This document shows positions 14,259 through 33,595 of a stretch of DNA of 62,765 bases, piece after piece; position 1 is the first letter of the stretch, and every line of letters begins with the position of its first letter. This stretch comes from an uncultured Gammaproteobacteria bacterium (lineage in GTDB: Bacteria > Pseudomonadota > Gammaproteobacteria > UBA9214), in contig CAWHCQ010000038.1 of the NCBI GenBank assembly GCA_963827755.1, positions 1 to 62,765 on the forward strand. The letters are read 5' to 3'. The notes below the pieces were generated by a model. It worked only from the letters and a program-made list of their open reading frames with translations. It did no database searches and was not told where the DNA came from. Both the position numbers and the translations under genes were made by a program.

Positions 14259-15341
14259 ATGAGCGAAGAACCCGGACAAACCGAGCCGACGCCGGATTAC
14301 ACCGCGCTGGCGCAATCGATCAAGCGCTGGGGCATGGAACTTGGTTTCCAGCAACTGGGCATTGCCGACACGGATCTTGCCGCCGACGAGGCACATTTAC
14401 TGCAATGGCTGAAGGCAGGCAGGCATGGCGACATGCACTACATGCAGCGTCATGGCACCCGCCGCAGCCGCCCTGGCGAGCTGCTGCCCGGCACCATCCG
14501 GGTAATCAGCGCACGCATGAATTACTGGCCGGCGGATGCACGGCAAACCGATGCCGTCCTCGATGACCCGGCACTGGCCTACCTGTCCCGTTATGCGCTC
14601 GGTCGTGACTATCACAAGGTACTGCGCAAGCGGCTGCAAAAGCTGGCAGACAGGATCGAGGCGCACACCGGCCCCTTTGCCTACCGCGTTTTTTCAGACA
14701 GTGCACCGGTACTTGAAAAGGCGCTGGCACAGAATGCCGGGGTCGGCTGGATTGGCAAACATACGAACCTGATCAATGAACAGGGCGGCTCCTGGTTCTT
14801 CCTCGGCGAGTTGTACACCAGCCTGCCGCTGCCAACCGATGCCAGGGCCGTGAACCATTGCGGCCGCTGCCAGGCCTGCATCGATGCCTGCCCGACCGGG
14901 GCCATTGTTGCGCCCTACGAGCTGGATGCACGCCTGTGCATTTCCTATCTCACCATCGAACTGCGCGGCTCCATACCCGAGCAGCTGCGCCCGTTGATCG
15001 GCAACCGCGTCTATGGCTGCGATGATTGCCAGCTGGTTTGCCCCTGGAACCGCTTCTCGAGCCCCAGCGGCGAAACCGATTTTCAGCCCCGCCACGGCCT
15101 CGACGCCAGCAGCCTGGTACGCCTGTTCCGCTGGGAGCAGGCAGACTTCGACCGCTATACACAAGGCAGCGCCATCCACCGCATCGGCCACGAATGCTGG
15201 CTTCGCAATATTGCAGTCGGACTGGGAAATGCCGCCAGCAGCGACGCAGTGGTCGCCGCCCTGCAGGCCCGGCGCGGGCATCCCTCGGCACTGGTGCGCG
15301 AACATGTGGAATGGGCGTTGCAACAACATGGTCGTGAATAA
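14259..15341 (+). CDS. queG: Epoxyqueuosine reductase
   Basis: YALGRDYH, DSAPVLEK, CGRCQACIDACPT, GCDDCQLVCPWN; divergent from nnr. Confidence 0.97.
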   Translation: MSEEPGQTEPTPDYTALAQSIKRWGMELGFQQLGIADTDLAADEAHLLQWLKAGRHGDMHYMQRHGTRRSRPGELLPGTIRVISARMNYWPADARQTDAVLDDPALAYLSRYALGRDYHKVLRKRLQKLADRIEAHTGPFAYRVFSDSAPVLEKALAQNAGVGWIGKHTNLINEQGGSWFFLGELYTSLPLPTDARAVNHCGRCQACIDACPTGAIVAPYELDARLCISYLTIELRGSIPEQLRPLIGNRVYGCDDCQLVCPWNRFSSPSGETDFQPRHGLDASSLVRLFRWEQADFDRYTQGSAIHRIGHECWLRNIAVGLGNAASSDAVVAALQARRGHPSALVREHVEWALQQHGRE

Positions 15342-15349
15342 GCCCACCA

Positions 15350-15527
15350 TACAGGTACGCCTTCGTAGGACGGGTAACGCGCAGCGTACCCGTCGCGGGC
15401 TCGCGATAGTTCTCTTCTAAAACAGACCAACTGTTTGACGGGTACGTCGCTAGCGCTCCTTTACCCATGCCTACAGGTACGACCGCTCGTCGTAGGACGG
15501 GTATTCGCGAGCTAGCGCTCGCTCTAC
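15350..15527. repeat. BIME-like REP cluster between convergent queG and rsmI
   Basis: GTAGGACGGGTAACGCGCAGCGTACCCGTC (15365), inverted partner ending TACCCATGCCTAC (15474), second GTAGGACGGGTA (15492) fused to TTCGCGAGCTAGCGCTCGCTCTAC. Confidence 0.8.
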
Positions 15528-16392
15528 GGGCCGCCGTCTGTTTCTCTTTGATAGCCAGGCCGGCCTCGTAGAGTCGGTTTTTTGACAGGCCGGTGATTTT
15601 CGCGGCCAGTGCGGCTGCCTGCTTCAGCGGCAACTCGTCCATGAGGATACTCAATACCCGTTCAGAATCCGCGTCGATCGCCGCATCGCGCGCCGGCGCA
15701 CCCTGCAGCATGACAACAAATTCCCCTTTTTGCTGATTACTGTCGGCCTGCACCCAGTCGGCAAGCTCGCCAAGGGTGCCGTCGCGGATGGTCTCAAAGG
15801 TCTTGGTCAGCTCGCGTGCAACCGTGGCCTGGCGGTCTGGCCCCATGGCCTCAGCCATGGCCTGCAGACATTCACAAATACGGTGACTGGACTCGTAAAA
15901 CACCAGTGTGCGCATCTCGGCTGCCAGTTCACGCAGGCGCCGGGCACGCGCCACCGGGCGGGACGGCAGAAACCCCTCGAACACAAAACGGTCGGTCGGC
16001 AGTCCCGCAACCGACAGGGCCGCAATACAGGCACTCGGACCCGGCAGGGGTATCACTCGAATACCGGCCTGGCGTGCGGCGCGCACCAGGTAAAAACCCG
16101 GGTCACTGATCAGCGGCGTCCCGGCGTCGGAAACCAGCGCCACGTCATCGCCACCAAGCAGCGTCTTCAATAATTTGTCGGTAGCATCCTGCTCATTATG
16201 ATCATGCAGGGCAATCAGGCGGGCCACGATGCCGTAATGCGCCAGCAGTTTTCGGCTATGACGGGTGTCTTCTGCAGCAATCAGCGGGACGGTCTTCAAT
16301 ACCTGCAGCGCCCGCAGCGAGATATCCTCCAGGTTGCCGATCGGTGTTGCCACGATATACAGCACACCGGGTTTCTTGCTGCCTGTGCCCAT
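15512..16392 (-). CDS. rsmI: 16S rRNA C1402 2'-O-methyltransferase (3' end approximate; raw ORF reads through the REP)
   Basis: LYIVATPIGNLEDIS, AEDTR, VSDAGTPLISDPG, ARELTKTFE; divergent from lpoA. Confidence 0.95.
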
Positions 16393-16522
16393 GGGCGTGA
16401 ATCCTAGCAAAAATCGTCAAAGCGGGTGCTGCATCCCTTAAATGGTGGACGCAGTAATGGCTTTTCAGTAGAGTCACTGGCAGCTGATTTCCATTGACGA
16501 TCCAACACAGTAGCGGCGACCC

Positions 16523-18433
16523 ATGCCTGTATCCACATGCCTGACTGCATGCAGAAATGCAGTAATCCTGATTCTGCTTGTTAGCCTGTTGCAAGCCTGC
16601 AGCTCCACCGCCCCGCGGCAACCTGCCGCTACCAGGAGCCCGCTCTACCAGCAGGCAGAAATGCACGAAGCCCGGGGTGATTACCAGGCTGCGGCGCGCA
16701 TTTATCTGCAGCTTGCAACACAGGCCGGCGGCAACGAGAAGCACGCCCTGCAGCTGACGGCGGCCGGCAGTCTGATTCGTGCTGCTGACTACAAGGCGGC
16801 GATGGCAATCCTTGATGCCCTGCCGCTCAGCAGTCTCAACCTGTTGAACATGCAGCATTACGATGTCAACCGGGCCGAGATCGCGGTGCGCGAACAACGC
16901 CCGGACAGAGCACTGGCGATCCTGCAGGTCGTTCCCCTCAGCGGACCCTATGTGGCAGACATACACCGGCTGCGAGCAGAGGCCTACCTGCAGAAGAACC
17001 AGTTTTTCCCGAGCGCGCGTGAAAGGATACTGCTTGACCCGTTGATAACCGACCCCGAGAAAAGGCTGAACAATGAATACCTGATCTGGGGATCCCTGAA
17101 CAAGCTCACAGACGCCGAACTGCAAGACTATCGCAGCGCACCTCCCCCCGACCCGGTCAGTGGCTGGATCGAACTGCTGGAACTGACGCGCCTCTACCTG
17201 CAACAACCGGATGTCATGAAAGAGGTCACACCCCGGTGGCAGCAGCGTTATCCCCTCCATCCGGCCAACCTGGGTTTTATTGATGCCATACTGGGGACCA
17301 TGCAGCTGGCGGGCCAACCTCCCGGGCAGCTGGCGCTCTTATTGCCGCTGACCGGCAACTTCGCGGATGCGGCTCACGCAATACGTGATGGTTTGTTCGC
17401 GGCCTACTATGATTCCCCCGATTCGGCCGTACATCCCCGTTTGCGCGTCTACGATACCGGGGAGACCCAGGAAAGTGCCCTGGCCGCCTATCAACAGGCC
17501 GTTACCGAGGGTGCGCAATTCGTGATAGGCCCGTTACGCAAAGAGGACGTGCTGGCCGTTGCCCGGCAGGAAAATCTCCCGGTACCGGTACTCGCGCTCA
17601 ACCATGTACAGGGGTTGGCACCAGCAGGTAATGCCTTCTACCAGTTCGGCCTGGCACCCGAGGACGAGGCACGGGAAGTTGCCCGCACGGCCTGGCAATA
17701 TGGCCACCGGCGCAGCCTTGCCATGATTCCGGACAATAGCTGGGGTGAGCGTGTCTATGCGGCATTTGCCGCTGCATGGCAGGCTCTTGGTGGCGAGATC
17801 CTCGAGGTGCAACGCTATGACGCAACACAAACCGACCACGGCGAGGCAATAAGTGCCTTACTTAACCTGAATGCCAGCAAGGCAAGACATCTGCAGGTTT
17901 CCCGCTTGCTCGGGACAAAACTGGAATTTGAACCGCGCCGCCGCCGGGACGTCGATTTTGTATTCCTGCTTGCCTCCCCCCTCCAGGCACGACTGATTCG
18001 CCCACAATTGAGTTTTTATCGCGCCTCCTCGGTTCCCGTCTATGCAACCTCACAGGTGTATACCGGCGAGCCCGACAGGGACAAGGATATCGATCTGAAC
18101 GACATCATATTCTGTGACATGCCGTGGGTGCTGGAGCAAAACAGCGACTGGTTGCACCTGCAGCAGGCCATCAGCGAATACTGGCCTGAAAATTCAAGCC
18201 GCTATAAACGACTCTACGCTCTGGGTATCGATGCCTACCGGATAATTCCCTATATCACCCAGCTGGGCGGCGGTATGTTCGGCACCTATCACGGTGTCAG
18301 CGGCAACCTTTCCCTTGACGAGCAGGGACAGATTAACCGCACCCTGCGCTGTGCGATATTCCGCAATGGGCTGCCGGACCTGCTGCAACCCGTTGCCGGG
18401 CAGGAATACACGACGAACATCGATACACCCTGA
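16523..18433 (+). CDS. lpoA: Penicillin-binding protein activator LpoA (LppC family lipoprotein)
   Basis: Lipobox LQAC, ALLLPLTG, IGPLRK, FGLAPEDEA, RLYALGIDAY; rsmI-lpoA-yraN synteny. Confidence 0.92.
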   Translation: MPVSTCLTACRNAVILILLVSLLQACSSTAPRQPAATRSPLYQQAEMHEARGDYQAAARIYLQLATQAGGNEKHALQLTAAGSLIRAADYKAAMAILDALPLSSLNLLNMQHYDVNRAEIAVREQRPDRALAILQVVPLSGPYVADIHRLRAEAYLQKNQFFPSARERILLDPLITDPEKRLNNEYLIWGSLNKLTDAELQDYRSAPPPDPVSGWIELLELTRLYLQQPDVMKEVTPRWQQRYPLHPANLGFIDAILGTMQLAGQPPGQLALLLPLTGNFADAAHAIRDGLFAAYYDSPDSAVHPRLRVYDTGETQESALAAYQQAVTEGAQFVIGPLRKEDVLAVARQENLPVPVLALNHVQGLAPAGNAFYQFGLAPEDEAREVARTAWQYGHRRSLAMIPDNSWGERVYAAFAAAWQALGGEILEVQRYDATQTDHGEAISALLNLNASKARHLQVSRLLGTKLEFEPRRRRDVDFVFLLASPLQARLIRPQLSFYRASSVPVYATSQVYTGEPDRDKDIDLNDIIFCDMPWVLEQNSDWLHLQQAISEYWPENSSRYKRLYALGIDAYRIIPYITQLGGGMFGTYHGVSGNLSLDEQGQINRTLRCAIFRNGLPDLLQPVAGQEYTTNIDTP

Positions 18434-18435
18434 GA

Positions 18436-18795
18436 ATGAATAAAATCGACACCGGCAAGGATGCCGAAGACCATGCCTGTCGCTACCTGCAGGCACGGGG
18501 ACTGCAACTTGTGCAGCGCAACTACCATAGCCGGCGCGGGGAAATCGACCTCGTCATGCAGGACAGGGACAGCCTGGTCTTCGTTGAGGTACGATACCGC
18601 CGCCAGTCACGCTTCGGCTCTGCCGCAGAGAGCGTCGACCGGCGTAAACAGTCAAAACTGATAGCCTGTGCCAGTCATTACCTGCAGGCGTTTCCCGGGA
18701 TTGCACGGCAACCCTGCCGGTTTGACGTGGTATCGATCGGTGCAAACCAGGACAGCATCGAGTGGATAAGAAATGCGTTTGACGCCCAGGAGTGA
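18436..18795 (+). CDS. yraN: YraN family (UPF0102) protein
   Basis: RNY...GEIDLVM...LVFVEVRYR, CRFDVV, WIRNAF. Confidence 0.93.
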   Translation: MNKIDTGKDAEDHACRYLQARGLQLVQRNYHSRRGEIDLVMQDRDSLVFVEVRYRRQSRFGSAAESVDRRKQSKLIACASHYLQAFPGIARQPCRFDVVSIGANQDSIEWIRNAFDAQE

Positions 18796-19398
<603 letters not shown>

Positions 19399-19407
19399 CT
19401 CGAATCA

Positions 19408-19995
19408 ATGAACGCACTCAAGGTATTTTTTGCTGTTTTTCTGACCACCCTGCTGCTGAACGGCTGTGCACCGCTTGTTGTGGGCGGGGCCGCAGCCACC
19501 GGCGTGAACATCGCCCATGACCGGCGCACCGTGGGCACCTACATCGACGACGAAGGCATCGAACTGAAGGCCGGTGCGGCGATTCGCCGGGAGAAGGAGC
19601 TGAGCAGCCAGATTCACATCAATATCATCAGCATCAATGGCGTGGTACTGCTGGTTGGCCAGGCACCAACCGAGGCCCTGCGACAGCAGGCCGCTGCAAT
19701 TACCCGGGGAATCGAGAAGGTGCGCCTGGTGCACAATGAAATGACGGTCGCCGCACCGAATTCGCTGATGACGCGCAGCAGCGATTCGGTCATTACAACG
19801 AAAGTGAAGGCCAGCCTGATCGGCATCAAGGGTCACGACGACCTGGATGTTACGCGCGTCAAGGTCGTTACCGAGAACGGCACCGTGTTCCTGATGGGGC
19901 TTCTCTACCATGCCGAGGCCGATGCGGTCACGGAACGTGCCAGCCAGGTGAGCGGTGTACAGAAAGTGGTCAAGTTGTTCGAGTACCTGGATTGA
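19408..19995 (+). CDS. dolP: Dual-BON lipoprotein (DolP/YraP)
   Basis: Lipobox LNGC, DRRTVGTYIDDEGIE, VKVVTENGTVFLMG. Confidence 0.9.
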   Translation: MNALKVFFAVFLTTLLLNGCAPLVVGGAAATGVNIAHDRRTVGTYIDDEGIELKAGAAIRREKELSSQIHINIISINGVVLLVGQAPTEALRQQAAAITRGIEKVRLVHNEMTVAAPNSLMTRSSDSVITTKVKASLIGIKGHDDLDVTRVKVVTENGTVFLMGLLYHAEADAVTERASQVSGVQKVVKLFEYLD

Positions 19996-20072
19996 CATCC
20001 CCTCCCGGCGACACGGTGTATGCAAGCGGTCAGTGCAACACCCCGCAAGCAGGCGCGACCCGGCAGACCGTT

Positions 20073-21080
20073 CTAGCGAGCGCTGTTCAGGCCAACGAAA
20101 CTGCCACCGTTCGTTTCCGCCAGCCGGCGCATCAGCGCGGCGTAGCGCACGGCATTCACCGGGAGATTCTGCCCCGTGCCAAACAGCACCGGGAAGCCGA
20201 CTGTATGGATACGCACGCGCCGCTTGCCGGACTTGTCGGCGCGATTGAGCTGCGCCACGGTGTCGACCACGGCCTGGATGGAACCGCGCGCAAAATCGTC
20301 GCCGAACACGTACAGGCTGATGCGCTTGTCCTGCGCATGGAAGCGACGGATGGCAGCCTCGATGCCTTCCACGGGACTTGAATTGGAAAAAGGCTGCCAG
20401 CCGGAGAGCCGCGTGATGATGGCCCTGCGGCGCGCCGGCGTGTCGGGTATCCACTTGCCCTGGTACTGCGAGAACATGTAGTCACCCATGTCGTTCATTA
20501 CCTGGATGCCCTTGACCCGCGGGTAAATGTCCAGCACCTCGGTGACCTTCTTCAACACCAGCGGCCAGGCATTCTGCTGCATGGAACCGGAGGTGTCGAT
20601 AATGAAAATAATGTACTCGCTGTCGACCGGCACCCCGCCGATGGTGGCCGCCAGTTTTTTGCGCTGGTAGCTGCTGCCCAGCAGGCGCCGCATTTCCTCC
20701 GTCAGTTCCTGTTTCGCAGACGCCAGCTGCTTCTCGATAATGGTCTGCGCATCATGCTCGTTGCGGGTGGTGGCGTACTGGCCACGAATCGTCGACATGT
20801 CGCCCTGGAGGCGCGCCAGTTTGTCGCGCTGCTCCGACAGCTGCTCTCGCCGGGCAGTCAGGTCACGGTTGAACACCGTGGTCTCGCCCCGGATCTCGTG
20901 CAGTTCGGCTTCCAGTTTCGCCACCAGTCCGCTGAGGTCAACCGCCAGCTGTTCGATGACATGCGGTTCTGAAATCTTGACGATCACCAGCAACAGGATG
21001 ATCGCGCCGAAACCGCAGGAAACCACATCCAGGAAGGACAGGTTGAAGATGTCGATGCTGCGGCGGCTACGCCGTCTCAT
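20073..21080 (-). CDS. Single-TM coiled-coil + vWA protein with ExbD/MotB-like N-terminus (paralog 1)
   Basis: Basic N-terminus, FNLSFLDVVSCGFGAIILLLVI TM helix, coiled coil, MIDAS-type IIDTSGSM and later FGDD. Confidence 0.85.
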   Translation of the reverse strand: MRRRSRRSIDIFNLSFLDVVSCGFGAIILLLVIVKISEPHVIEQLAVDLSGLVAKLEAELHEIRGETTVFNRDLTARREQLSEQRDKLARLQGDMSTIRGQYATTRNEHDAQTIIEKQLASAKQELTEEMRRLLGSSYQRKKLAATIGGVPVDSEYIIFIIDTSGSMQQNAWPLVLKKVTEVLDIYPRVKGIQVMNDMGDYMFSQYQGKWIPDTPARRRAIITRLSGWQPFSNSSPVEGIEAAIRRFHAQDKRISLYVFGDDFARGSIQAVVDTVAQLNRADKSGKRRVRIHTVGFPVLFGTGQNLPVNAVRYAALMRRLAETNGGSFVGLNSAR

Positions 21081-22168
21081 GGCCAGTCCCGCGCCGGTGT
21101 CATAAAGGAACCGCTCGTTTCCTGTGCGAGTTTCCAGAATGCCGCCGCTGCCCAGGCATCACCTTCCATCGGCAGCAGTACCGTATTCACCGGGATGCCG
21201 GACGGCAGCACACGCATCGCCGCCTGAAAGTGTTGCAGACGTTCGGCGCCGGACACCGTGGTTGCGCCTGGTTTGCCGCGCCCCTGCGTCGGCAGGCCAT
21301 CGGTGACCAGCAGGATATTGTCCGGCCGCGGCGACAGCTTTCCCGCAACCGCGAACGCATGGTACAGGCTGGTGCCATCGCCCGGCACGGTCTGGCGCAG
21401 GGCACCGATGGCGGCGTCCACGTCCTTGCGGCTGGAGGCCTGCAGCCAGTTGCCGTCGGTGCCGCTGACGGCGGCGCCGGCCCGCGTGTTGAAGGTATAG
21501 AGCTGAAACTTCGCCGTGGAAGGCAGGTTGCTGACCAGCCAGTCGGCGGTTTTCAATGCACGCTGCCACTTGGGTGCACTGCGTTTGACGGCCGCATTCA
21601 TATTGCGCTTGCGCACCACGTTGATAATGGTCTCGTCGAGCATACTGGCCGAGACGTCCACCAGCAGCAGCACCCGCTTGCCGCCCATCTTCAGCCCGGT
21701 GAGATACTGGCGGTCACCCTCCCCCTTGACCTCGCGAACCCTGGTACCGCTGTCTTGCTCTGCCGGCTGCGCCGCACCGAGGCGTTTATTCTCTTCATCC
21801 TGGTTCTTCAGATCAGACGCTAACTCATTGATATGTTGTCGACTTGCCAGGGTTTCGTTATCCATGCGTGCCACTTCGATCTCGAGCTTCCTGACGGTCT
21901 CGATGATGCGCTCGGCCTCGCCCTGCGTCGTGACCAGTTCACTGTCGGTGGCAGCCAGGCTGTTTTGGGCCGTCACCATATCCTCGCGGCCGACGATCAC
22001 TTCCTGCTCGAGGCGGACCACTTCGGAGCGCAGGTCCGCAAACACGGCATTGCGCGCGCGCACGGTGTCGGTATTGAGGATCAGCACCAGCAGCACCACG
22101 GCGCCGAAGCCGCAGAACATGATGTCGAGGAACGACAGTGAAAAGGGTGAAACGGGACGGCGTTTCAT
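21077..22168 (-). CDS. Single-TM coiled-coil + vWA protein with ExbD/MotB-like N-terminus (paralog 2)
   Basis: FSLSFLDIMFCGFGAVVLLVLIL TM helix, coiled coil, LVDVSASM, GTSL, LVTDGLP; 4-bp overlap with paralog 1. Confidence 0.85.
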   Translation of the reverse strand: MKRRPVSPFSLSFLDIMFCGFGAVVLLVLILNTDTVRARNAVFADLRSEVVRLEQEVIVGREDMVTAQNSLAATDSELVTTQGEAERIIETVRKLEIEVARMDNETLASRQHINELASDLKNQDEENKRLGAAQPAEQDSGTRVREVKGEGDRQYLTGLKMGGKRVLLLVDVSASMLDETIINVVRKRNMNAAVKRSAPKWQRALKTADWLVSNLPSTAKFQLYTFNTRAGAAVSGTDGNWLQASSRKDVDAAIGALRQTVPGDGTSLYHAFAVAGKLSPRPDNILLVTDGLPTQGRGKPGATTVSGAERLQHFQAAMRVLPSGIPVNTVLLPMEGDAWAAAAFWKLAQETSGSFMTPARDWP

Positions 22169-22193
22169 AATATTGTCCGGCCGCGCGCGCCGC

Positions 22194-22988
22194 TCAGCTG
22201 CGCAGGCGCCGGATCAGCCAGTGATCGACATAACGTTCGCTGTCGAGCACCAGGCGCTCCTGCATCAGCTGCAGCTGGTGCACAAAAAACATCAGGACGA
22301 TGCTGATGACCAGTGCGATGAAGGTCGAGTTGAAGGCCACACCCAGGCTGGCGGTGACCCCGGTAATGTCGCCCTCGACGGCACGGTGCGCCTGCCCGAG
22401 GGCGTCACCGATGCCACGGACGGTGCCGATAAAACCCACCGAGGGAATGGCCCAGGCAATGTAGCGGATGATGGACAGCTCGGACTCCAGGCGATCACCT
22501 TCCGAGTCGCACAGATCGCGCGCCGCCGTCGAGACGTTTTGTACATTGCGGGTCGCGGCAAAGCGCTCGATGGCGGTCAGCAGCGTGCGCGGCAGCAGGT
22601 AGTGCTGCATGGACGCCGGCAGCGACTGGATGCGCCCGGACAGGTCGCGGGTGTCTTCCGGGCCGATGGGCAACTCCGCAGGCAGGCGCAGCAGGTCCTG
22701 GTCGAGCAGCTTCTGCTGACGCCAGGTCATCCGGCCCTTGAAACCGAGAATGGAAAAGGCCCACAGCATGAGGACAAAACAGGTTTCCTGTTCGTAGTCC
22801 TTGACGACCACGAAGAATGACCGCTGTTGAACATAGCCGGGGTCGGACTGCATCTGCAGTGCCTCCTGCCCGATGAAGGCATTGGCCTGCGGCCGGATGA
22901 AGCTGACATAGAGCGCATGCACCAGGATGAATGCAATCAGCAGTGAAAATATCTGGTAAAAGAATTCAACGGGGAAGCCTCTGTTCAT
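22194..22988 (-). CDS. MotA/TolQ/ExbB proton-channel family protein
   Basis: IPSVGFIGTVRGI and LGVAFNSTFIAL channel helices; about four TM segments. Confidence 0.9.
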   Translation of the reverse strand: MNRGFPVEFFYQIFSLLIAFILVHALYVSFIRPQANAFIGQEALQMQSDPGYVQQRSFFVVVKDYEQETCFVLMLWAFSILGFKGRMTWRQQKLLDQDLLRLPAELPIGPEDTRDLSGRIQSLPASMQHYLLPRTLLTAIERFAATRNVQNVSTAARDLCDSEGDRLESELSIIRYIAWAIPSVGFIGTVRGIGDALGQAHRAVEGDITGVTASLGVAFNSTFIALVISIVLMFFVHQLQLMQERLVLDSERYVDHWLIRRLRS

Positions 22989-23023
22989 GGCGCGTCTCTT
23001 CCTGTGTCAGGTCGGGTAGTCAT

Positions 23024-23263
23024 TCAAATATCCACGGGGAACGACACGGCGCTGTCGGCGCCGATCTTCTCCGTGGGGGTAAAGGTGGCCGCGGGTTTGC
23101 GCACCGGCCGAGGGTCCTGTCTGGCCGGGGGACCGGGTTGCTCCGTGGCAGTCTCCGTGGCTGTTGCCGGCTGCTTTTCGTCCTCCGCGGCCAGGGCGTA
23201 CGGCGCCCCTGTTGCAGCCAGACAGCCAAGCACCACGACAAGTCCTGAAAAACGCACCATCAT
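23024..23263 (-). CDS. Small exported protein (~79 aa) with Pro/Thr-rich linker and distinct C-terminal tail
   Basis: Signal peptide ending ALA-A, disordered linker, C-terminus FTPTEKIGADSAVSFPVDI; in operon orientation. Confidence 0.65.
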   Translation of the reverse strand: MMVRFSGLVVVLGCLAATGAPYALAAEDEKQPATATETATEQPGPPARQDPRPVRKPAATFTPTEKIGADSAVSFPVDI

Positions 23264-23361
23264 CGATCCCCTGTCACTCGCACGCAGGTTGCGTGTATCC
23301 GTTGGGCAAAACATTTCATCCACCGCGGTTGCAAAGCTGTCATCGCGCTCGATGGCCGCAG

Positions 23362-25773
23362 CTACTCCGCATAGCGCGCCACACGAAAACCGAGATCGGG
23401 CCGCGCCGTGCGGCTGTAGTCGCGGTAACTCAGGCGCAACTCCGAGATCGTCCCCTGGCGCCAGCTCGAACCGCGCACCACGTGGTGCTCGCCGGACACC
23501 GGTCCCAGCGGATCACGTACCGGTTTGCCGGCCTCACCCGGATACACGGCATAGTAATCGTGCATCCACTCGGCCACGTTGCCGCCGAGATCATGAAACC
23601 CCGCCGGCCAGGCCGCAAAGCTGCCCACTGCTGCTGCGACCCGGTGGCCGTCATTGTAGTCCGGAACGGTATTGGCAAGGGTGTCGGCAATGCTGGCATC
23701 GGCAAAATTGCCAACGACCTCCGTCGGCGGGAAAGTTCCGCTCCACGGGTAACGCTGTTCCGACTGGCGTGTATGCCTGCGCGCGACGTAGGCCCACTCC
23801 GCCTCGCTCGGCAGACGATAACCGCTTGCCAGCGGCAACACCGCCTGCAATCGTCCATTGACCTCGGCATAGGCCGGCGGCAACCCTTCACGGCCGCTCA
23901 ACCAGTTGCAGTAGCGGGCCGCATCCTCCCAGCTTACATTCACCACCGGCTGCCTGTCGGCATTCAGGCTCACGCCCTCGGATGAACCCGAACTGTGCGC
24001 AGGCTTGAACTGCCGGTACTCTGCATTGCTCACTTCTCTGCTCGCCAGGTAGAAGGGGCGCGTCAACTCTACCAGCCGTTCACTTTCATTGGCACGGCGC
24101 CCGGCATCGCGCCGCGATGCCCCCATGCGGAAATTCCCCTGCGGGCGCACCAGTTGCAACGGCTGACCGTCCGCACTTTTCCTGACAGCGGGCGTGGCGG
24201 CCGCCTGTTGCACGCTGCGCGCCTGCGCCTCGGTCAGCAGGGTGACATCGACATTCCGGCTGCTGCCGCTGCGCGGCGTGACCGTGACGGTTTTCGAGAC
24301 ATAGCCGGCTTTGCGAAATACCAGCGTGTGACTGCGCGTCGTCAGCTGCAGACGTTGCGTGGCCTTGCCGACATCCCTGCCGTCAACCTGCAAGGTTGCA
24401 TCCCCCGGCTGCGCGGTCACGAACACAATGCCGTACTCCGGTTTCAGTTTCGCATCGAGAGACTGCTCCTCGTCCGCTGCCAGCTGCAGTTGCTTCTCGT
24501 AGCGCCGGTAGCCCGGCCGTGTCAGGCGCAGGGTGTGTTCGACATTCGAGGCAAGCAACAGGGTAACCGGCGTGGTCCCGTTAAAGACACCATCGACACT
24601 CACACTGGCCCCCGCGGGATCACTGCCGAGCACCAGCCTGCCATCGGCCGGCTGCAAGCGGAACGTATCGAGCACCAGCTCGGCACCGGCCTGAACCACC
24701 TGCTGCAGCGACAGCGGCTTGTGTTTTTCAAGTGTCAGCAAAAGGCTGCGCTCGCCCTGCAGGAGCTCGGTATCCAGCGGCGTTACGCCGATCTCTGCAC
24801 CATCCACCTGCACGGATGCACCCTGCGGCAGGCTGTCGATGTGTACCCTGGCCCAGGCCGGCTGCAGGACAAGCGTTACACGCTGGGCCTCGCCCTTGCC
24901 GGCCACGGTCAGCAACTGTTCGACCGGCAGGTAGCGCGCCGTTTCGATACGCAGCCGCCGGCTTCCGCCGGGGATCTCCGCGACCTTGTCGCCGTCAACC
25001 GGCACCTCCATATCATCGATAAACAGTCTGAACGGGATATCCGGCTGCAGCTCGATACCGACCCGGCCGGGCAGCTCCTCGAACGCCAGATCGAACATCT
25101 GCAACCCGCCCGCAAGCACCTCGATGGTCTGCCGCAGCGGGCGGTAACCCGCACGTTCCGCGGTGACCGTGTAACGGCCGGGCAGGATCAGTTGACGCTC
25201 ACCGATGGAGACCGCCGGCGGGAATCCCTTCAGCGCCTGGCGTTCCGGTTGCGGTGTAATCCGCAACGTCACCGGTGTGGCCAGCAGCACGAACACGACC
25301 GCCAGCAGTAACAGAATGAACACACCGAGGGCGATCCTTCTCAGGGTGCGCTGACCCTGTGCAGGCACGGGCGTCTGCGGCACCTCCGGAAGCGACCGGT
25401 TATTCAGCGGCAGCGGCGAATCGGCCGGCGGGACCAGTACCGGTGCAGCGGCCCGCTTCTGTACAGTGATGTGGACCTGGTCACCCTGAACCTGCCAGTG
25501 GATGACCGACTCCCCGACCTCGACCACGTCACCCGACTTCAGCCACTTCGATGCTGCCAGGTGTTCGTGATTGTGAAACAGCGGTGTTTCCGTTTCGGTC
25601 GGCTGGATGAAGGCATGGCCGTCGGTCAACCCGATATGCGCCACGACGGCAGCGCCCGGCAGACCGGGCAGCACGATGCCGCCCTGCCCCGTGCCGCCGA
25701 TGGACAGTGGCAGGTCCGCAGCACCGAGGCGGCGCTCCCCGTGCGCATCATGGACAAAATAGACGTGGCTCAA
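23362..25773 (-). CDS. FHA-like / TM / multi-PEGA / FGE-sulfatase-fold (SUMF1-like) membrane protein
   Basis: S.P.GA.V.VDG...G.TP PEGA repeats; FRMG, EVSNAEY, PVVNVSWEDA..YCNWL, YRLPSEAEW, DLGGNVAEW, RGSSW, GFR. TTG start overlaps the upstream stop. Confidence 0.88.
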   Translation of the reverse strand: MSHVYFVHDAHGERRLGAADLPLSIGGTGQGGIVLPGLPGAAVVAHIGLTDGHAFIQPTETETPLFHNHEHLAASKWLKSGDVVEVGESVIHWQVQGDQVHITVQKRAAAPVLVPPADSPLPLNNRSLPEVPQTPVPAQGQRTLRRIALGVFILLLLAVVFVLLATPVTLRITPQPERQALKGFPPAVSIGERQLILPGRYTVTAERAGYRPLRQTIEVLAGGLQMFDLAFEELPGRVGIELQPDIPFRLFIDDMEVPVDGDKVAEIPGGSRRLRIETARYLPVEQLLTVAGKGEAQRVTLVLQPAWARVHIDSLPQGASVQVDGAEIGVTPLDTELLQGERSLLLTLEKHKPLSLQQVVQAGAELVLDTFRLQPADGRLVLGSDPAGASVSVDGVFNGTTPVTLLLASNVEHTLRLTRPGYRRYEKQLQLAADEEQSLDAKLKPEYGIVFVTAQPGDATLQVDGRDVGKATQRLQLTTRSHTLVFRKAGYVSKTVTVTPRSGSSRNVDVTLLTEAQARSVQQAAATPAVRKSADGQPLQLVRPQGNFRMGASRRDAGRRANESERLVELTRPFYLASREVSNAEYRQFKPAHSSGSSEGVSLNADRQPVVNVSWEDAARYCNWLSGREGLPPAYAEVNGRLQAVLPLASGYRLPSEAEWAYVARRHTRQSEQRYPWSGTFPPTEVVGNFADASIADTLANTVPDYNDGHRVAAAVGSFAAWPAGFHDLGGNVAEWMHDYYAVYPGEAGKPVRDPLGPVSGEHHVVRGSSWRQGTISELRLSYRDYSRTARPDLGFRVARYAE

Positions 25774-27197
25774 ATCAGTTCCACGCAACGCACCAGCAAC
25801 GACGGACGAGACATACCCGGGCGTACCCTGAATACCTTGCGTACATCACGATAACCAGGCCGGCTGCCGACGACGGTATAGTCACCCGGCAGCAATTCCA
25901 GCTGATGCGTGTCGAACTGGCCGAGTCGCCCGACGCGATAGATCGCCACGCTGGTCGCACCGTCCGAGTTCAGGGTAACCGCAACCGGCGTGCCGGCCCG
26001 GCTCACCAGTTCGCGCAGTGCCGTGATTTTTTTTGCCAGCCGCGGTTCACCCTGCGGCGCCTCGCTGGCGCTGGCAAGCAACTGTCTGGCATTGGCCAGC
26101 GGTTCGGTCGAGAACACCCGGACCGGGTTGTCAAGATAGTGATCGAACTGTGCGTGCAACGCGATCCGCTGCTCTGCACGGCGCATCCCCTCGCGGGCAA
26201 AACCTGCCACCGGGTCGATGTCCAGCGCCTTGCGGTACAATCCAGCGGCGGCCTGCCAGTCTTCGGCCGCGACCCTGTTCGACGCCTGCCGGCGCAACAT
26301 TTTCAGCGCGGCCTGCATCCGCATCTGCTCCAGGCGTTGCCGCGCATCCCGGACCACGGAATCACCGGGCCGCAGGCGTCCGGCCGCGGCCAGTGCCTTG
26401 CCGGCCGCACCCGTCTGGCCGGCATCCAGTGATGCCAGCGCCCGGGTCATGGCTGCATTGAAATCACGTGCATTGATCTGTGCGCTCACCCGTTGCAGCG
26501 CCGCCGCGGCCTGCGCATGGTCCGCATCCAGCTGCACCGCCTCCCGGTAGGCCGCCGCGGCCGCCTCGAAATTGCCGTTGGCTTCCGCGGCCTGCCCCCG
26601 GTTTATCTGCTCGATGACGGCCCTGCGGCTGTGCGCCCGTGCAAGACCACGCGTGGCAAACGGGTGCCCGGCCTCGATAGCCAGTGCCGCTTCATATCGG
26701 GAGATGGCCGTGGAGGCATCATTCTCCGCCAGTGCACGGGCGGCCTCATCAAGTGCCGTGGCCAGCAGCGACGCCCGGTTGTCGACAAGCAGCTGCAGGC
26801 GGTCGAGGCCTGCCCGATAGTCCCGGGCCGCCGCAGCGAATTGCCGCTGTGTAAAATAACGGTCGCCACTGGCTACCAGCGCGGCCGCGGCACCCCACTC
26901 CGGCTCACCCCAGGCCGCGGCATTATCGAGCTCCATCCTGGCACGCTGTTGCAGGTAAGCCTGCAGGGCCCGGCGCGCCGTGTCGCGCGCTGCCGCGCTG
27001 TCACCGGCCGCCGGGGCCGGCATATCTTCCAGCATGGCGGTCTCGTCGACCGGGCCAACCAGGTCCGGAAGCAGGAAGATCACGACCATCCCCAGCAAAA
27101 GCAACGCGGCCAGCATGGCCAACGGCCAGCGCTGGTTCGCGGACGTAGTCGCAGCAGGCGGCCGCCCGGGTGGCTGCAAGGTGGTTGAATCCGTCAT
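25770..27197 (-). CDS. Membrane-anchored TPR-like helical protein with C-terminal PEGA-like domain
   Basis: N-terminal TM, repeated A...Y..AL..DP TPR patterns, C-terminal L.PGDYTVVGSRPGYRDVR. Confidence 0.8.
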   Translation of the reverse strand: MTDSTTLQPPGRPPAATTSANQRWPLAMLAALLLLGMVVIFLLPDLVGPVDETAMLEDMPAPAAGDSAAARDTARRALQAYLQQRARMELDNAAAWGEPEWGAAAALVASGDRYFTQRQFAAAARDYRAGLDRLQLLVDNRASLLATALDEAARALAENDASTAISRYEAALAIEAGHPFATRGLARAHSRRAVIEQINRGQAAEANGNFEAAAAAYREAVQLDADHAQAAAALQRVSAQINARDFNAAMTRALASLDAGQTGAAGKALAAAGRLRPGDSVVRDARQRLEQMRMQAALKMLRRQASNRVAAEDWQAAAGLYRKALDIDPVAGFAREGMRRAEQRIALHAQFDHYLDNPVRVFSTEPLANARQLLASASEAPQGEPRLAKKITALRELVSRAGTPVAVTLNSDGATSVAIYRVGRLGQFDTHQLELLPGDYTVVGSRPGYRDVRKVFRVRPGMSRPSLLVRCVELI

Positions 27198-27235
27198 ACC
27201 GGGTTGTTCGCGGACGTCCAGGTTGACAGCCACGG

Positions 27236-28441
27236 TCAGGAACCGGCCAGGCCGGTCTCGGAGACATAGATGCGCTTCAGCAGGGCACGCCACCGGGCGT
27301 ATTGCACTTCGGCCGATCCGGTCAGTTCGTGGGTCTCGCCCTCCACCTCGACGACCATCGGCCGGGCCTCGGAGGAGAAGGATTCATCCAGCTCGATAAT
27401 GGCATCGCGATGGATTTTGGTTTCCGACGACTTGTCGAAACCGGTCTTGATGGCGTATGCGCCGCCCAGCACCAGGACATCACGCAGCACGCCGGAACCG
27501 GCATTGTTGCCGTCGCTCGAGGCCTCGATGGCGACGGCGCCAATGATGGCCGCCGCACCCAGCAGCTTGCGCTTCAGTGCCTCGCGTTCCAGTTCACGCA
27601 GGTTGGTGGCCTCCTCGCTGCGTGCCTTGCGCCACTGTGTGTAGGGCTCCTCCATTTGCCGGGTGAAATTATCGAAATGACCGTTCAGAGTGTCGATCAG
27701 CATAAAGTCCCGGTCGCGGATGGCCAATACCCGCTGGTACATCGGGTCATCTGCCGCCGGCAGGTGCATGACCCTGACCGTATCCTGGTCTGTTTCCAGG
27801 TAACCATTGAAGGCGTCCGGTGCGAGGTCTTCCGCAAAGTGCAGAGCGGCAACCCGGCGGATAGCCGAGGTTTCTGCAGCATCCAGCCTGACGCGGACTT
27901 CGGCAAGGTCATTGGCAATGGTGTTGTAGAGCGACTGGAATACCTCACTGCCATTACTGCCGCTTTGCAGGTATCGCGTGTACTCGATTTCTTCCCGGTA
28001 GGTACGCCTGAACCACTCGCGCCCGGTTGCATCCAGCGCCTTTATTTCCAGTACCAGGCGCTCGCCGTCGGATTCCAGGATGGTGCCGCGCACCAGCAGC
28101 TCGCTGCCCGTGGTGTCCTGCGGCACCATGCGCACGGCACCCCAGTAACCGGTGCTTTCCATTGTGGTGCGCAGTTGTTCCGGCAGATAACGGGCCTCGG
28201 CCTCGCGAATATCCATGGAAAGTCCCATGGCCTTGTCTTCATCGTCCGGAAGTTTGCCCGGGTCGAACAACTCCACCCAGACATCCAGCAGCTGCTCTTC
28301 AGGCAACTCGGTAACCGCCTTGTTCAGAGGCACCTTGCCATCAACATTGCGTGCCGGTCCAAGCGTGCTGCAGCCGTGCAGCAGCGCGAACAGCAGGAAC
28401 AGAAATACTGGCTTGCTAAATCTCATGGTATTGGCCTTCAT
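27236..28441 (-). CDS. Hypothetical lipoprotein
   Basis: Lipobox LLHGC; 401-aa ORF whose start abuts the upstream stop. Confidence 0.8.
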   Translation of the reverse strand: MKANTMRFSKPVFLFLLFALLHGCSTLGPARNVDGKVPLNKAVTELPEEQLLDVWVELFDPGKLPDDEDKAMGLSMDIREAEARYLPEQLRTTMESTGYWGAVRMVPQDTTGSELLVRGTILESDGERLVLEIKALDATGREWFRRTYREEIEYTRYLQSGSNGSEVFQSLYNTIANDLAEVRVRLDAAETSAIRRVAALHFAEDLAPDAFNGYLETDQDTVRVMHLPAADDPMYQRVLAIRDRDFMLIDTLNGHFDNFTRQMEEPYTQWRKARSEEATNLRELEREALKRKLLGAAAIIGAVAIEASSDGNNAGSGVLRDVLVLGGAYAIKTGFDKSSETKIHRDAIIELDESFSSEARPMVVEVEGETHELTGSAEVQYARWRALLKRIYVSETGLAGS

Positions 28442-29217
28442 CAGCGTGTGCCTTGCTTGTACTTGCGGTATTCCTCCCAGAGTTTCTTCTTCAGTTCGGG
28501 GTCGGTCTCCTTCTCGGCAGCCTCGCGCAGTTGCCGCGCCACCACGTCATCATCACTGCCGTCCGGGATATCCGGCGGTGTTCCCGGTCCGCCGCCCTGG
28601 CGCTGTGCCCCGCGGCCCGCCCCGCGGCCGTAACTGGTATCGCTGCCACCCTCCGGGTTCGCCCCGGATTTGCCTGCTGCACTTTCAGCACCTTCTGCGC
28701 CTTCTGCACCTTCTGTACCTTCAGTGCCTTCCCCTGTGCCTGCAGCGCCTGTGCCGCCACCGGCAGCATCCGTCATGGGCGCCGCGGCCCTGATGCGATC
28801 CTGTTCGCGCAGCAGCATTTCATCAAACTCACCAAGGCCGGCAAACAATTCTGCATCGAAGGCAGCGAGCTGTTCATCCATGGTTTTCTCCGCCGCCTGG
28901 TCGATCGCTGCGGGGGCGAGAAATAGCGGCGGCTGCAACGGACAGCCCAGATCAGGCGACATTTGAAGACCGGCCTCGGCCAGCGCCACGCAGTCCTCGG
29001 CAACCTGGCGGTGCAGGCGGGCGACATAGCTGGCATAGTCAGCGGCTTCTACACCATTAAGACTGCCACGCTGCCGCCGTGCATGAAAATCCTGCTCGGC
29101 AGCATTCAGGGCGGCATGGTCGATGTGCAAGCGGTCAAGCAGCTGCAGATTATCGGCAGCCGACCCGCAGCTTGCCAGCAACAATCCTGCCATTATCAAT
29201 AATCTATCATGCTTCAC
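28441..29217 (-). CDS. Hypothetical exported (possibly lipo-)protein with Gly-rich linker and acidic helical C-terminus
   Basis: LLLASC N-terminus; GTEGAE linker; PPDIPDGSDDDVVARQLREAAEKETDPELKKKLWEEYRKYK. Confidence 0.75.
   Translation of the reverse strand: MKHDRLLIMAGLLLASCGSAADNLQLLDRLHIDHAALNAAEQDFHARRQRGSLNGVEAADYASYVARLHRQVAEDCVALAEAGLQMSPDLGCPLQPPLFLAPAAIDQAAEKTMDEQLAAFDAELFAGLGEFDEMLLREQDRIRAAAPMTDAAGGGTGAAGTGEGTEGTEGAEGAEGAESAAGKSGANPEGGSDTSYGRGAGRGAQRQGGGPGTPPDIPDGSDDDVVARQLREAAEKETDPELKKKLWEEYRKYKQGTR
28685..28740. repeat. Coding 9-bp tandem repeat (G-A/T-E)n
   Basis: Units of the CCTTCTGCA/CCTTCTGTA/CCTTCAGTG type encoding GEGTEGTEGAEGAEGAE on the minus strand. Confidence 0.75.
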
Positions 29218-29292
29218 AGCATCTCCCGCGTCCCCGAAACACTCATACCATGTTAATACGCATGACACTTATAGAGGAAACGCATTCCACCG

Positions 29293-29367
29293 GATTCCCG
29301 GGAATCGGGCTAAAATCAACATTTTTTAACAATTTCCCCACGCTACCGGTCTCGATTCCGGGAATCG
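29293..29367. promoter_or_regulatory. Two copies of palindrome GATTCC(C)GGGAATC upstream of the vWA/ExbB operon (candidate operators)
   Basis: GATTCCCGGGAATC at 29293-29306 and CGATTCCGGGAATCG at 29353-29367, flanking an AT-rich tract. Confidence 0.45.
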
Positions 29368-29444
29368 TTGATCCTGGTGGTTCGACTGTTTATTGCGGGA
29401 TACATTCCCCTGGACTTCCGGGTCAGGCAAGAAAGGTCATTCCT

Positions 29445-30071
29445 TCAGCGCCCGGCAGTGACGAGTTTCAGGGCCAGGCCAAGGAACACGGCTCCAGCCA
29501 CCCGGTTCATGACGATCTGCGCACGCGTCGACGTTCGCAGCCGGTTGCCCAGAAAGCCGGCGGCCCATGCTATCGAACCGAACACAATGAGCGTTGCCAT
29601 TATGAACAGCGCACCGAAATAAAATAGTTGCAGCGTCAGCGAGCCTCGCGCCGGATCTGCGAACTGCGGAAGAAATGCCAGAAAAAAGATCGCGACCTTC
29701 GGATTTGTGACGTTCATGATGACTCCACGCGCATACAGCCGGGATCTGCTTGCAGCCGGGGTATGGTTTTGGGGAATATCAGATGCGCCTGCCCGAAAGG
29801 CCAGCCATGCAAGATAAAGCAGGTAGGCGGCTCCCAGTATCTTCAGGAAATTAAACGCCGTAACAGAGGTCTGAAAAACTGCGGCCACTCCCAGGGACAC
29901 CGCCGTGGTATGAACAAGGATACCCGTGCAGAGACCCATGGTTACTACCAACCCGGCCACGCGGCCATGAAGCGCACTTTGCGTGAGTACGAAGATGTTG
30001 TCGGGACCGGGTGCCAGCGCTAAAGCAATCGACGCAGCGAAAAAAACACAGACGATATCGAACGGGATCAT
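29445..30071 (-). CDS. LysE/RhtB family translocator
   Basis: APGPDNIFV, GAAYLLYLA, NVTNPKVAIFFLAFLPQF. Confidence 0.93.
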   Translation of the reverse strand: MIPFDIVCVFFAASIALALAPGPDNIFVLTQSALHGRVAGLVVTMGLCTGILVHTTAVSLGVAAVFQTSVTAFNFLKILGAAYLLYLAWLAFRAGASDIPQNHTPAASRSRLYARGVIMNVTNPKVAIFFLAFLPQFADPARGSLTLQLFYFGALFIMATLIVFGSIAWAAGFLGNRLRTSTRAQIVMNRVAGAVFLGLALKLVTAGR

Positions 30072-30257
30072 TTTCGGAACTCCACAGCCTGAAGCCTGCG
30101 ATGAATATCTTCGAGTGACAATGATGTCAACAGCGGGCAAACGTTACCGCACATCCAGGCCGGGTTTCGCAGGAGCCGGCGACAGCTCGCGAATCTTTCT
30201 GCAATCCATGAAACCCTTCGCCAGTTGTCGCCGGCTCCTGCTAATGGCGGACCAGCC

Positions 30258-31655: not shown

Positions 31656-31731
31656 TGAACTGTACTTGATGCAGACTCAGGGATAGTTGATAAAAAGCAG
31701 TGCCCGGCAATATGTCCCGGCAACGAGGCAA

Positions 31732-32892: not shown

Positions 32893-33551
32893 TTCGCCAC
32901 CTCGTTTTTGACATTGCTGATTGCCAGTACATTTTCATATTTGAGCCGCAGCAGGCTGGATTCGGGGTTGTTTGCGGGCGTAGCCGCCAGCGCGCGCTGG
33001 TATGCCTCACTCGCCGCGGTTGCATTGTTACGGGCGCTGTGAATATCCCCGGAAACCTCGTCGTAGAGGCTGTCAAAAGCCGTCGTATTGCGGGGCTGCT
33101 GCAGCAGCGCCTCCGCTTCATCCAGTTGCTGCCGTGCAACCAGCACGCGGGCAAGGCGCAGGCGGGCCGTCTCCCTGACCACATCAATGTCGGCATTATC
33201 CAGCACCCATCGAAGTTGCTGGCCGGCAGCATTCAGGTCACCGTCCTGCGAGCGGATTTTTGCCAGCGCCAGTGCCGCAAGCGCGGCATACGGCGTTGAG
33301 TTGTACTGCGTAATAAGGATATCCGCCCGCTCGTTGACAAGCTGCCTGTCATCCCTGTCGAGCCCCTGCAGCATGGTGCTGTAGATTGTCGAAGCCTGCC
33401 CGGCAACGTTCTCCTGGTAGGCCAGCCAGGCCCTGAATCCAAATACACAGGCAAGTCCGAGCGCCACACCGACAATTATCGATGTGCCATTGTCACTCCA
33501 CCACTTTTTGAGTTCAGCAATCTGCTGCTCTTCTGTTTCATTAGCCATCAA
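32889..33551 (-). CDS. yfgM: YfgM family ancillary SecYEG subunit
   Basis: TEEQQIAELKKWWSDNG, TM helix, TPR-like region. Confidence 0.93.
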   Translation of the reverse strand: MMANETEEQQIAELKKWWSDNGTSIIVGVALGLACVFGFRAWLAYQENVAGQASTIYSTMLQGLDRDDRQLVNERADILITQYNSTPYAALAALALAKIRSQDGDLNAAGQQLRWVLDNADIDVVRETARLRLARVLVARQQLDEAEALLQQPRNTTAFDSLYDEVSGDIHSARNNATAASEAYQRALAATPANNPESSLLRLKYENVLAISNVKNEVAK

Positions 33552-33595
33552 CCACTCCTGTTAGCACTATTTTCATTGTTCAATATGCAGCCGCT

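Follow-up and report, generated by a model that had tools for sequence, protein, structure and literature searches.

In a 62,765-nucleotide stretch of DNA from an uncultured gammaproteobacterium (contig CAWHCQ010000038.1 of assembly GCA_963827755.1; the whole stretch is called the window here), three consecutive minus-strand genes, which we name A, B2 and B1 in the order in which they are read, encode a TolQ/ExbB-type membrane subunit and two related proteins that each join an N-terminal hydrophobic helix and a long helical stalk to a vWA domain. We consider it likely, although well short of certain, that A, B2 and B1 form a proton- or ion-driven envelope motor of the MotAB/ExbBD/TolQR (5:2) type. 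The domain make-up of the three proteins, the conservation of their aspartate, threonine and metal-site residues, the linkage of the genes and, at the level of a model, a B1–B2 heterodimer were all computed directly. The window genes are an instance of a motor type that was already predicted in print in 2025 (PMC12204202); the conserved operon around the motor is new here.

A is a member of the TolQ/ExbB family. It matches the Pfam MotA_ExbB model (PF01618) with 53.8 bits over residues 137–249 (cut-off 22.9), and comparison of the A family (67 sequences) with Escherichia coli TolQ by hhalign gives a probability of 87% (E 4e-6), the corresponding value for ExbB being 35%. The AlphaFold2 (AF2) model of A, with a predicted local distance difference test (pLDDT) score of 88.8, was compared with known structures using Foldseek. 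The best match is TolQ from the E. coli TolAQR structure (9ddm_A; E 6e-4, TM-score 0.67 on the target), ExbB chains rank after the TolQ chains, and MotA and PomA chains appear at rank 45 or lower with TM-scores of 0.35–0.41. Two threonines, Thr189 and Thr222, are invariant across the 67 A sequences and align in hhalign with Thr145 and Thr178 of TolQ and with Thr148 and Thr181 of ExbB. PMC12204202 describes these threonines as an essential ring around the aspartate of the B subunit. A tblastn search of A against plasmids gave three matches, all of them weak and partial.

B1 and B2 are paralogues with 26% identity over 175 residues (E 3e-13). Each has one hydrophobic segment behind a basic tail, and the two share the transmembrane (TM) motif SFLD..CGFGA. 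The basic tail suggests an N-in topology, which would place the aspartate of the motif (Asp18 in B1 and Asp15 in B2) near the cytoplasmic end of the helix. In our set of genome loci, which consists of the best 80 of 190 relatives from a scan with one genome per species, all 80 B1 and all 75 full-length B2 orthologues retain this aspartate. We also collected the 150 best representatives, of which 108 have the N-terminal motif (the other 42 are fragments or are without it); the aspartate is found in 107 of the 108, and the exception (P0145) has a serine. An alignment of 150 B1 and B2 N-termini shows Asp, Cys and Gly at positions i, i+4 and i+7 to be invariant. When the paralogues are taken separately, Cys22 is invariant and Asp18 is at least 90% conserved in 77 diverse B1 homologues, and Asp15, Cys19 and Gly22 are invariant in 74 B2 orthologues. 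The TM aspartate is conserved far more strongly than chance would allow.

The AF2 model of B1, built from the 77 diverse homologues (mean pLDDT 89), contains a continuous helix (residues 10–124), a short uncertain linker and an α/β domain (residues 150–335). The helical stalk comprises ∼95 residues in both proteins and reaches to about residue 130 in B1 and about residue 127 in B2; at 0.15 nm per residue, this corresponds by arithmetic to a length of ∼14 nm. Foldseek matches the α/β domain of B1 to the vWA domains of BatB (3ibs), vWF A3, integrin I domains and ANTXR, with E values of about 1e-7 to 1e-5 and TM-scores of about 0.6 on the target. B2 matches Pfam VWA_2 with 30 bits (cut-off 27; E 9e-7). 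Sequence searches of the PDB with the whole of B1 and the whole of B2 gave no significant match. Judged from sequence, both proteins have a vWA domain with a conserved putative metal site, the metal-ion-dependent adhesion site (MIDAS). In B1 its residues (Asp162, Ser164, Ser166, Ser234 and Asp261) are invariant in the 77 homologues; in B2, Asp171, Ser173, Ser175 and Asp290 are invariant in the 74 orthologues and Thr266 is at least 90% conserved. The MIDAS columns of the two proteins coincide in a merged alignment. No periplasmic ExbD/TolR-fold domain and no OmpA-like peptidoglycan-binding domain is found in B1 or B2, where the stalk and the vWA domain take their place.

Prediction of the B1+B2 complex, the pair to which complex prediction was applied, used family alignments and gave an ipSAE of 0.81 (0.81, 0.79 and 0.81 in the individual runs), whereas none of three controls scored above 0.00; at least 69% of contacts are shared between the runs, and the partner pLDDT is 75 or more. 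Of 157 solved complexes 116 attain this score level, as do 2 of 215 mismatched pairs, although these counts apply only roughly to B1–B2 since alignments of our own were used. The predicted interface is parallel and in a single register, with residue n of B1 next to residue n−3 of B2. Contacts begin in the TM segment (residues 20/24/31 of B1 with 17/21/28 of B2) and continue at a spacing of 3–4 residues up to 130/127, and the model also pairs the vWA heads through their last strands and helices. Taken as a whole, the model is of a parallel B1–B2 heterodimer whose common register would bring Asp18 and Asp15 to equal depth. Asp18, Cys22 and Gly25 lie outside the confident interface residues and therefore may face outward to a surrounding ring, which is a hint only, as a residue that is not listed is uncertain rather than proven to be free.

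Much of this had been anticipated in an earlier note made from the letters of the DNA. Its ExbB-like gene adjoining both vWA proteins matches PF01618, and the basic tail and shared TM motif with an aspartate are seen in both B1 and B2; the conservation of that aspartate across homologues, which the note had left to be examined, stands at the counts given above. The long coiled coil that it expected after the TM segment appears in the AF2 model as the unbroken helix of B1, the vWA domains do have intact DxSxS motifs (DTSGS and DVSAS) at the places it had indicated, and its heterodimeric core is borne out at the model level by the prediction with an ipSAE of 0.81.

Several results weigh against the assignment of A, B2 and B1 to a motor of this type. 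Pfam gave no family for the first 50 residues of B1 and B2, ExbD and MotB included. When the 150 N-termini were used as a profile against 177,635 distinct PDB sequences at E values up to 10, no ExbD, TolR, MotB or PomB chain was found and there were just two chance matches, both to a mitochondrial complex I subunit. Alignment of the N-termini with E. coli TolR, ExbD and MotB by hhalign gave probabilities of 2.2, 1.6 and 0.3%, respectively, no better than that of a TolA control, and when 5529 open reading frames (ORFs) were ranked with the profile, TolR, ExbD and MotB took the 17th, 243rd and 315th places among the non-family sequences. A B1 homologue in a Verrucomicrobia metagenome-assembled genome (MAG; L040:10001–11002; 53% identity) has no A or B2 within 10 kb. 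Furthermore, the complex test can be passed by coiled coils and by close paralogues that are not true partners, and literature searches beyond PMC12204202 returned no other description of the system and no experiment on any member.

Homology of B1 and B2 to PF02472 (ExbD) or to MotB, TolR or ExbD sequences was not detected in these searches, so that the comparison of the first ∼40 residues with ExbD/MotB profiles, by which the earlier note would have its likeness judged, showed no significant similarity. The search for TolR homologues yielded only sequences 86–100% identical to E. coli TolR. In all three hhalign alignments the family aspartate lands on the functional position, namely Asp23 of TolR, Asp25 of ExbD and Asp32 of MotB. 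As no significant similarity of the N-termini was seen, `ExbD/MotB-like' denotes a probable way of working and not membership of a family. The topology, the position of the aspartate, the threonines of A and the fact that no other partner was found suggest that B1 and B2 probably do work in this way. Their trans-pore helix may have arisen by convergence. Three sets of window ORFs (9, 50 and 95) were scanned with Pfam, and none contained an ExbD, MotB-plug or OmpA-type protein. Searches of 5523 ORFs from the window and the 80 loci using phmmer, a method of limited sensitivity here, gave no relative of E. coli ExbD or TolR and a single weak match to E. coli MotB, located downstream of B1 (L041 11110–11832; E 8e-4).

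The B1 family is large, with at least 8000 clusters at the 90% identity level (E up to 1e-3). The 120 clusters listed are 80–96% identical, and those with names bear the label `VWA domain-containing protein' or `hypothetical'. Representatives at the 50% identity level number 1526 with E up to 1e-3 and 332 with E up to 1e-30. An Atlas search with residues 1–45 of B1 gave no usable match. Most of the loci are from Gammaproteobacteria, and others are from Desulfobacterota, Acidobacteriota, one Rhodospirillaceae MAG and one Verrucomicrobia MAG; the B1 homologue of the last-named genome stands among unrelated genes and could be an orphan copy or have its partners elsewhere. Culturable and harmless carriers of the operon include the marine species Seongchinamella unica (L034), Microbulbifer echini (L051) and Pseudoalteromonas denitrificans (L059).

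Linkage was counted in those loci with contigs long enough to show the gene in question. Of 77 such loci, 76 have B2 beside B1, and of 71, 70 contain A; the one exception in both counts is the Verrucomicrobia locus L040. The stop codon of B2 and the start codon of B1 overlap by 4 nt (ATGA), which fits coupled translation. Of ten genes flanking the operon in the window, none recurs within 10 kb of its copies in the 80 loci; the operon therefore moves as a unit in which the internal order is kept, and its flanks offer no clue to its function. In the window it sits between two housekeeping clusters, one at 14950–19995 (rsmI, LppC/LpoA-like, UPF0102, SIS and a dolP-like BON-domain gene) and the other at 30258–34882 (der, BamB-like, TPR_21 and hisS). 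An Rfam scan of 19000–30500 gave zero matches and a promoter and terminator scan of 19900–23500 gave no convincing signal at the gene ends. The coordinates of the motor genes, their key residues and the remaining operon genes are summarized in Table 1.

Table 1. Genes, helices and conserved residues of the motor operon in the window
Feature	Position	Strand	Basis
B1, 335 aa	20073..21080	minus	ORF translation
B1 TM/trans-pore helix FLDVVSCGFGAIILLLVIV, residues 16–34	20979–21035	minus	Hydrophobic segment after basic tail
B1 Asp18	21027–21029	minus	TM motif
B1 MIDAS DTSGS, residues 162–166	20583–20597	minus	Sequence motif; plus S234, D261
B2, 363 aa	21077..22168	minus	ORF translation; Pfam VWA_2
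B2 TM/trans-pore helix FLDIMFCGFGAVVLLVLIL, residues 13–31	22076–22132	minus	Hydrophobic segment after basic tail
B2 Asp15	22124–22126	minus	TM motif
B2 MIDAS DVSAS, residues 171–175	21644–21658	minus	Sequence motif; plus T266, D290
A subunit, 264 aa, TolQ/ExbB-type; presumed pentameric ion-channel ring	22194..22988	minus	Pfam PF01618
A pore threonine T189 (codon)	22422–22424	minus	hhalign with TolQ/ExbB
A pore threonine T222 (codon)	22323–22325	minus	hhalign with TolQ/ExbB
Small unannotated gene, 79 aa from ATG at 23263	23024..23263 (ORF to 23323)	minus	Motif pattern, tblastn
808-aa membrane protein	23362..25788	minus	Pfam PEGA E 1e-40, FGE-sulfatase E 7e-40; in 61/63 loci
507-aa TPR protein, hydrophobic segment 57–75	25770..27293	minus	Pfam TPR_1 E 1e-5, below cut-off; 59/61 loci
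401-aa lipoprotein-like protein	27236..28441	minus	Hydrophobic N-terminus ending ...LLHGCS; 55/59 loci
275-aa protein, lipobox-like LASC, acidic low-complexity middle	28441..29268	minus	tblastn; 46/55 loci

Upstream of A, on the same strand and in an order that is fixed across loci, lie the genes for the 275-aa, the 401-aa, the TPR and the 808-aa proteins. What had appeared as a 373-nt gap between the 808-aa gene and A contains a further small gene, which ends 35 nt upstream of A. Its product begins like a signal peptide, continues with a low-complexity linker in which Pro, Glu and Thr are frequent, and reads ...TFTPTEKIGADSAVSFPVDI directly before the stop codon. A pattern search located the acidic C-terminal motif, F-x-P-S/T-E-x-I-x-x-D-x-x-V-x-F-P-V-D-I-stop (...SFPVDI), just ahead of A in 61 of the 67 loci that were eligible, where it ends 3–273 nt before A; tblastn recovers the small gene in four of the six loci that the pattern missed (L024, L030, L034 and L051). 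Outside this motif the small protein is barely conserved. It belongs to no Pfam family, and a literature search with the motif string found no relevant paper. An acidic C-terminal peptide that is bound for the periplasm and encoded beside two MIDAS heads is an obvious candidate ligand for them.

The 808-aa protein consists of a cytoplasmic N-terminal domain of ∼150 residues, a TM segment (residues 152–170), PEGA repeats and a C-terminal domain with the FGE-sulfatase fold, the fold of formylglycine-generating enzymes (FGE). The N-terminal domain has no family match. Judged by sequence comparison, PorK/GldK is the nearest relative of the FGE domain and not a family to which it belongs: the best PDB sequence matches of the protein are PorK/GldK-type lipoproteins (E 7e-14), and its score against the NCBIfam GldK model TIGR03525 is 100.3 bits, far short of the 350 required. 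Whereas a genuine formylglycine-generating enzyme works with two cysteines, the 808-aa protein contains one overall, at position 627, and its FGE domain is therefore probably a binding domain rather than an enzyme. The kinase PpkA has a vWA domain as its periplasmic domain. A precedent for an FGE-fold protein as a binding partner in the periplasm is TagR, which is modelled to bind the periplasmic domain of PpkA in envelope-damage sensing (PMC13713981).

Of the two lipoprotein-like products, the 401-aa protein has no Pfam, NCBIfam or PDB match and gave only unnamed clusters in the Atlas, and the 275-aa protein is 55–83% identical in many loci over its last ∼45 residues (∼228–275), with poor conservation of the rest. 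A gene for a protein of ∼420 residues (for example L034:7649–8908), with no Pfam match, is located between A and B2 in 62 of 71 loci; it is absent from the window and from nine loci (L001, L002, L004–L008, L036 and L071). Downstream of B1 many loci (for example L017:10608–13561) have two lipoprotein genes and an M48-type peptidase gene, which tblastn finds in 45, 35 and 28 loci, respectively, and in neither the window nor its closest relatives. The window operon is a reduced, eight-gene version.

Whether the conserved helix of B1 and B2 is in place at all in the mature proteins has to be considered, because a basic tail followed by a hydrophobic stretch looks like a signal peptide, and the VVSC leading up to the invariant Cys of the window B1 loosely fits a lipobox pattern. 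If the N-terminus were a cleaved signal peptide or a lipoprotein signal, the vWA proteins would be periplasmic or lipid-anchored and would have no trans-pore helix, a situation that we regard as extremely improbable. By the lipobox rule, Phe and Cys are unexpected directly before a lipidated Cys. At this place 48 of 78 B1 sequences have Cys, 24 Ser, 5 Thr and 1 Ala, and among 72 B2 sequences 34 have Ser, 19 Phe, 10 Thr, 6 Cys and 3 Ala; on this distribution we reject the invariant Cys as a lipobox Cys. Moreover, the most hydrophobic 19 residues extend to both sides of the Cys, the SFLD..CGFGA motif is conserved well above what is expected of a signal peptide, the B1 helix passes unbroken into the stalk in the AF2 model, and TM residues on either side of the Cys join the predicted B1–B2 contact. 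Cleavage of the N-terminus is unlikely. A retained helix could still be a mere anchor, in which case B1 and B2 would be ordinary membrane-tethered vWA proteins resembling BatA and BatB, and A would borrow a TolR or ExbD from elsewhere or act alone. The lack of significant similarity between the helix and those of ExbD, TolR and MotB favors this explanation, as does the fact that BatB, itself a vWA protein tethered to the membrane, ranks with the closest structures found for the B1 head, and a tolR or exbD gene may lie elsewhere in the genome, outside the window. However, a plain anchor is not expected to keep Asp, Cys and Gly across phyla in two paralogues, A, B2 and B1 occur together in 70 of 71 loci despite their changing flanks, and phmmer found no ExbD-like gene in any copy of the operon; we therefore consider the explanation unlikely, while allowing it some weight.

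The two remaining alternatives accept that A works with B1 and B2 and concern the composition and the purpose of the assembly. To our knowledge, the B subunit is a homodimer in every 5:2 motor with a solved structure, and close cousins of a true partner pass the complex test too; B1 and B2 might accordingly each homodimerize to give two motors, A5:B1x2 and A5:B2x2, that differ in their heads. This is distinctly unlikely in view of the strict co-occurrence of B1 and B2 (76 of 77 loci) with the ATGA overlap, and of a TM segment and stalk that pair in one register from 20/17 to 130/127 even though the proteins are only 26% identical; PMC12204202 also notes `heterologous pairs'. In the other alternative the complex is a sensor rather than a force transducer: binding of a ligand to the vWA domains would control the passage of ions through A5B2, or the reverse, with the signal sent on to cytoplasmic partners, for which the N-terminal domain of the 808-aa protein and the ∼420-aa protein of most other loci would be candidates. 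The operon does encode a membrane protein with a cytoplasmic N-terminal domain, the product of the ∼420-aa gene between A and B2 (62 of 71 loci) is presumed to be cytoplasmic, and the FGE-fold TagR modelled on a kinase periplasmic domain (PMC13713981) provides a precedent. Pfam and NCBIfam, however, find no kinase, phosphatase or transcription factor in the operon, and a long rigid stalk with paired heads would fit a mechanical role; we consider a sensor very unlikely.

Taking A, B2 and B1 as an ion-driven motor, we infer the following about ring insertion, ion coupling, the transmission of rotation or force and the identity of the ligand. The TolQ-like A ring, presumably a pentamer, would encircle the two N-terminal helices of the B1–B2 heterodimer. 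The aspartate pair (Asp18 of B1 and Asp15 of B2) would take up and release the ion beside the ring threonines Thr189 and Thr222, and the flow of ions would turn or pull the B1–B2 pair relative to the A ring. The parallel two-stranded stalk of ∼95 residues would hold the paired, contacting vWA heads far into the periplasm. There the heads may grip client proteins through their MIDAS sites by way of an acidic residue of the partner, thereby passing on force or motion. The operon itself offers candidate partners: the small secreted protein, the 808-aa protein with its PorK-like FGE domain, and both lipoprotein-like products.

A bolder proposal, which we think possible but doubtful, is that the 8–11 genes of the operon encode an undescribed trans-envelope machine. 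A TolQ-like ring would drive a heterodimeric shaft whose MIDAS heads clamp the ...SFPVDI-COOH end of the small secreted protein and work against a PorK-like FGE/PEGA scaffold and outer-membrane lipoproteins. Such a machine would be a proteobacterial counterpart of PorKLMN assembled from unrelated parts, with an Asp-Cys-Gly helix that arose independently of ExbD, TolR and MotB, and would occur in Gammaproteobacteria, Desulfobacterota and Acidobacteriota. Ion-driven motors of the 5:2 kind are known from flagella, TonB-dependent uptake, outer-membrane maintenance, gliding and the type IX secretion system (T9SS), and Zorya defence, all of which they power. A further widespread motor class would broaden this range of couplings, as its central subunits end in metal-dependent adhesion domains. 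The gene set of the operon and the small secreted protein make the class more approachable and yield testable hypotheses.

Compared with the known systems, the A subunit has the fold, the motif and both pore threonines of TolQR and ExbBD of E. coli, and B1 and B2 resemble TolR and ExbD in having a single N-in helix with the aspartate near its cytoplasmic end (Asp23 in TolR and Asp25 in ExbD). They differ in that the helix has no detectable homology, a coiled coil and a vWA domain replace the ExbD/TolR domain, two paralogues are present that are predicted to form a heterodimer, and we noticed no TolA/TonB-like gene with an SHLS helix among the operon genes. With the MotAB/PomAB stators the operon shares the presumed 5:2 logic, in which an aspartate-bearing B helix lies within an A ring, whereas A is nearer to TolQ/ExbB than to MotA, and B1 and B2 match neither an OmpA-like domain nor the MotB plug. 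BatA and BatB of the Bacteroides aerotolerance system likewise combine an N-terminal membrane anchor with a periplasmic vWA domain, with BatB (3ibs) scoring near the top of the structural matches for the B1 head; the operon described here differs in having no MoxR ATPase or DUF58 partner by Pfam and NCBIfam. We know of no Bat protein with an aspartate-bearing helix paired to a TolQ-like gene. A PADLOC search of seven operon proteins for anti-phage systems, such as Zorya ZorAB, gave nothing relevant, with two matches at the coiled-coil level (E 0.005–0.008).

The resemblance to GldKLMN/PorKLMN, the core of the T9SS and gliding machinery, is one of analogy to the gene order gldK-gldL-gldM, with an FGE-fold protein followed by a motor A subunit and motor B subunits that have long periplasmic extensions, and is accompanied by the placement of PorK/GldK nearest to the 808-aa FGE domain in both the PDB and NCBIfam. 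In contrast to that system, A is TolQ-like, none of A, B1 and B2 gave a match to the GldL or GldM models, a GldN-like protein did not turn up, and the FGE protein is not a lipoprotein, being held in the inner membrane by its TM helix.

The closest description in the literature is that of the `trans-pore-helix vWA' (TPH-vWA) proteins, predicted beside tolQ-like genes by computation alone (PMC12204202; Mol Biol Evol 2025). Term searches of two surveys of 5:2 motors (PMC9389320 and PMC12505986) found the words vWA and Willebrand in neither. TPH-vWA proteins occur mostly in heterologous pairs, with a predicted TolR/ExbD-like trans-pore helix that has a conserved aspartate, and AlphaFold3 places this aspartate inside the threonine ring of a TolQ-like pentamer; the seed is from Idiomarina loihiensis and the family is given for Proteobacteria and Verrucomicrobia (PMC12204202). 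The sections of that paper on the family make no mention of the stalk, the conservation of the MIDAS, the SFLD..CGFGA motif with its invariant Cys or the operon. The earlier note, in proposing a dimeric, aspartate-bearing 5:2 core with vWA heads, reached the published hypothesis independently; the core idea is not new, and our results support it in the form of the model in PMC12204202. The likeness is one of listed features rather than of established orthology to the I. loihiensis seed, and in these features the window genes and the TPH-vWA proteins are the same: a TM-tethered vWA pair with an aspartate in the helix, encoded beside a tolQ-like gene with no tolR or exbD nearby.

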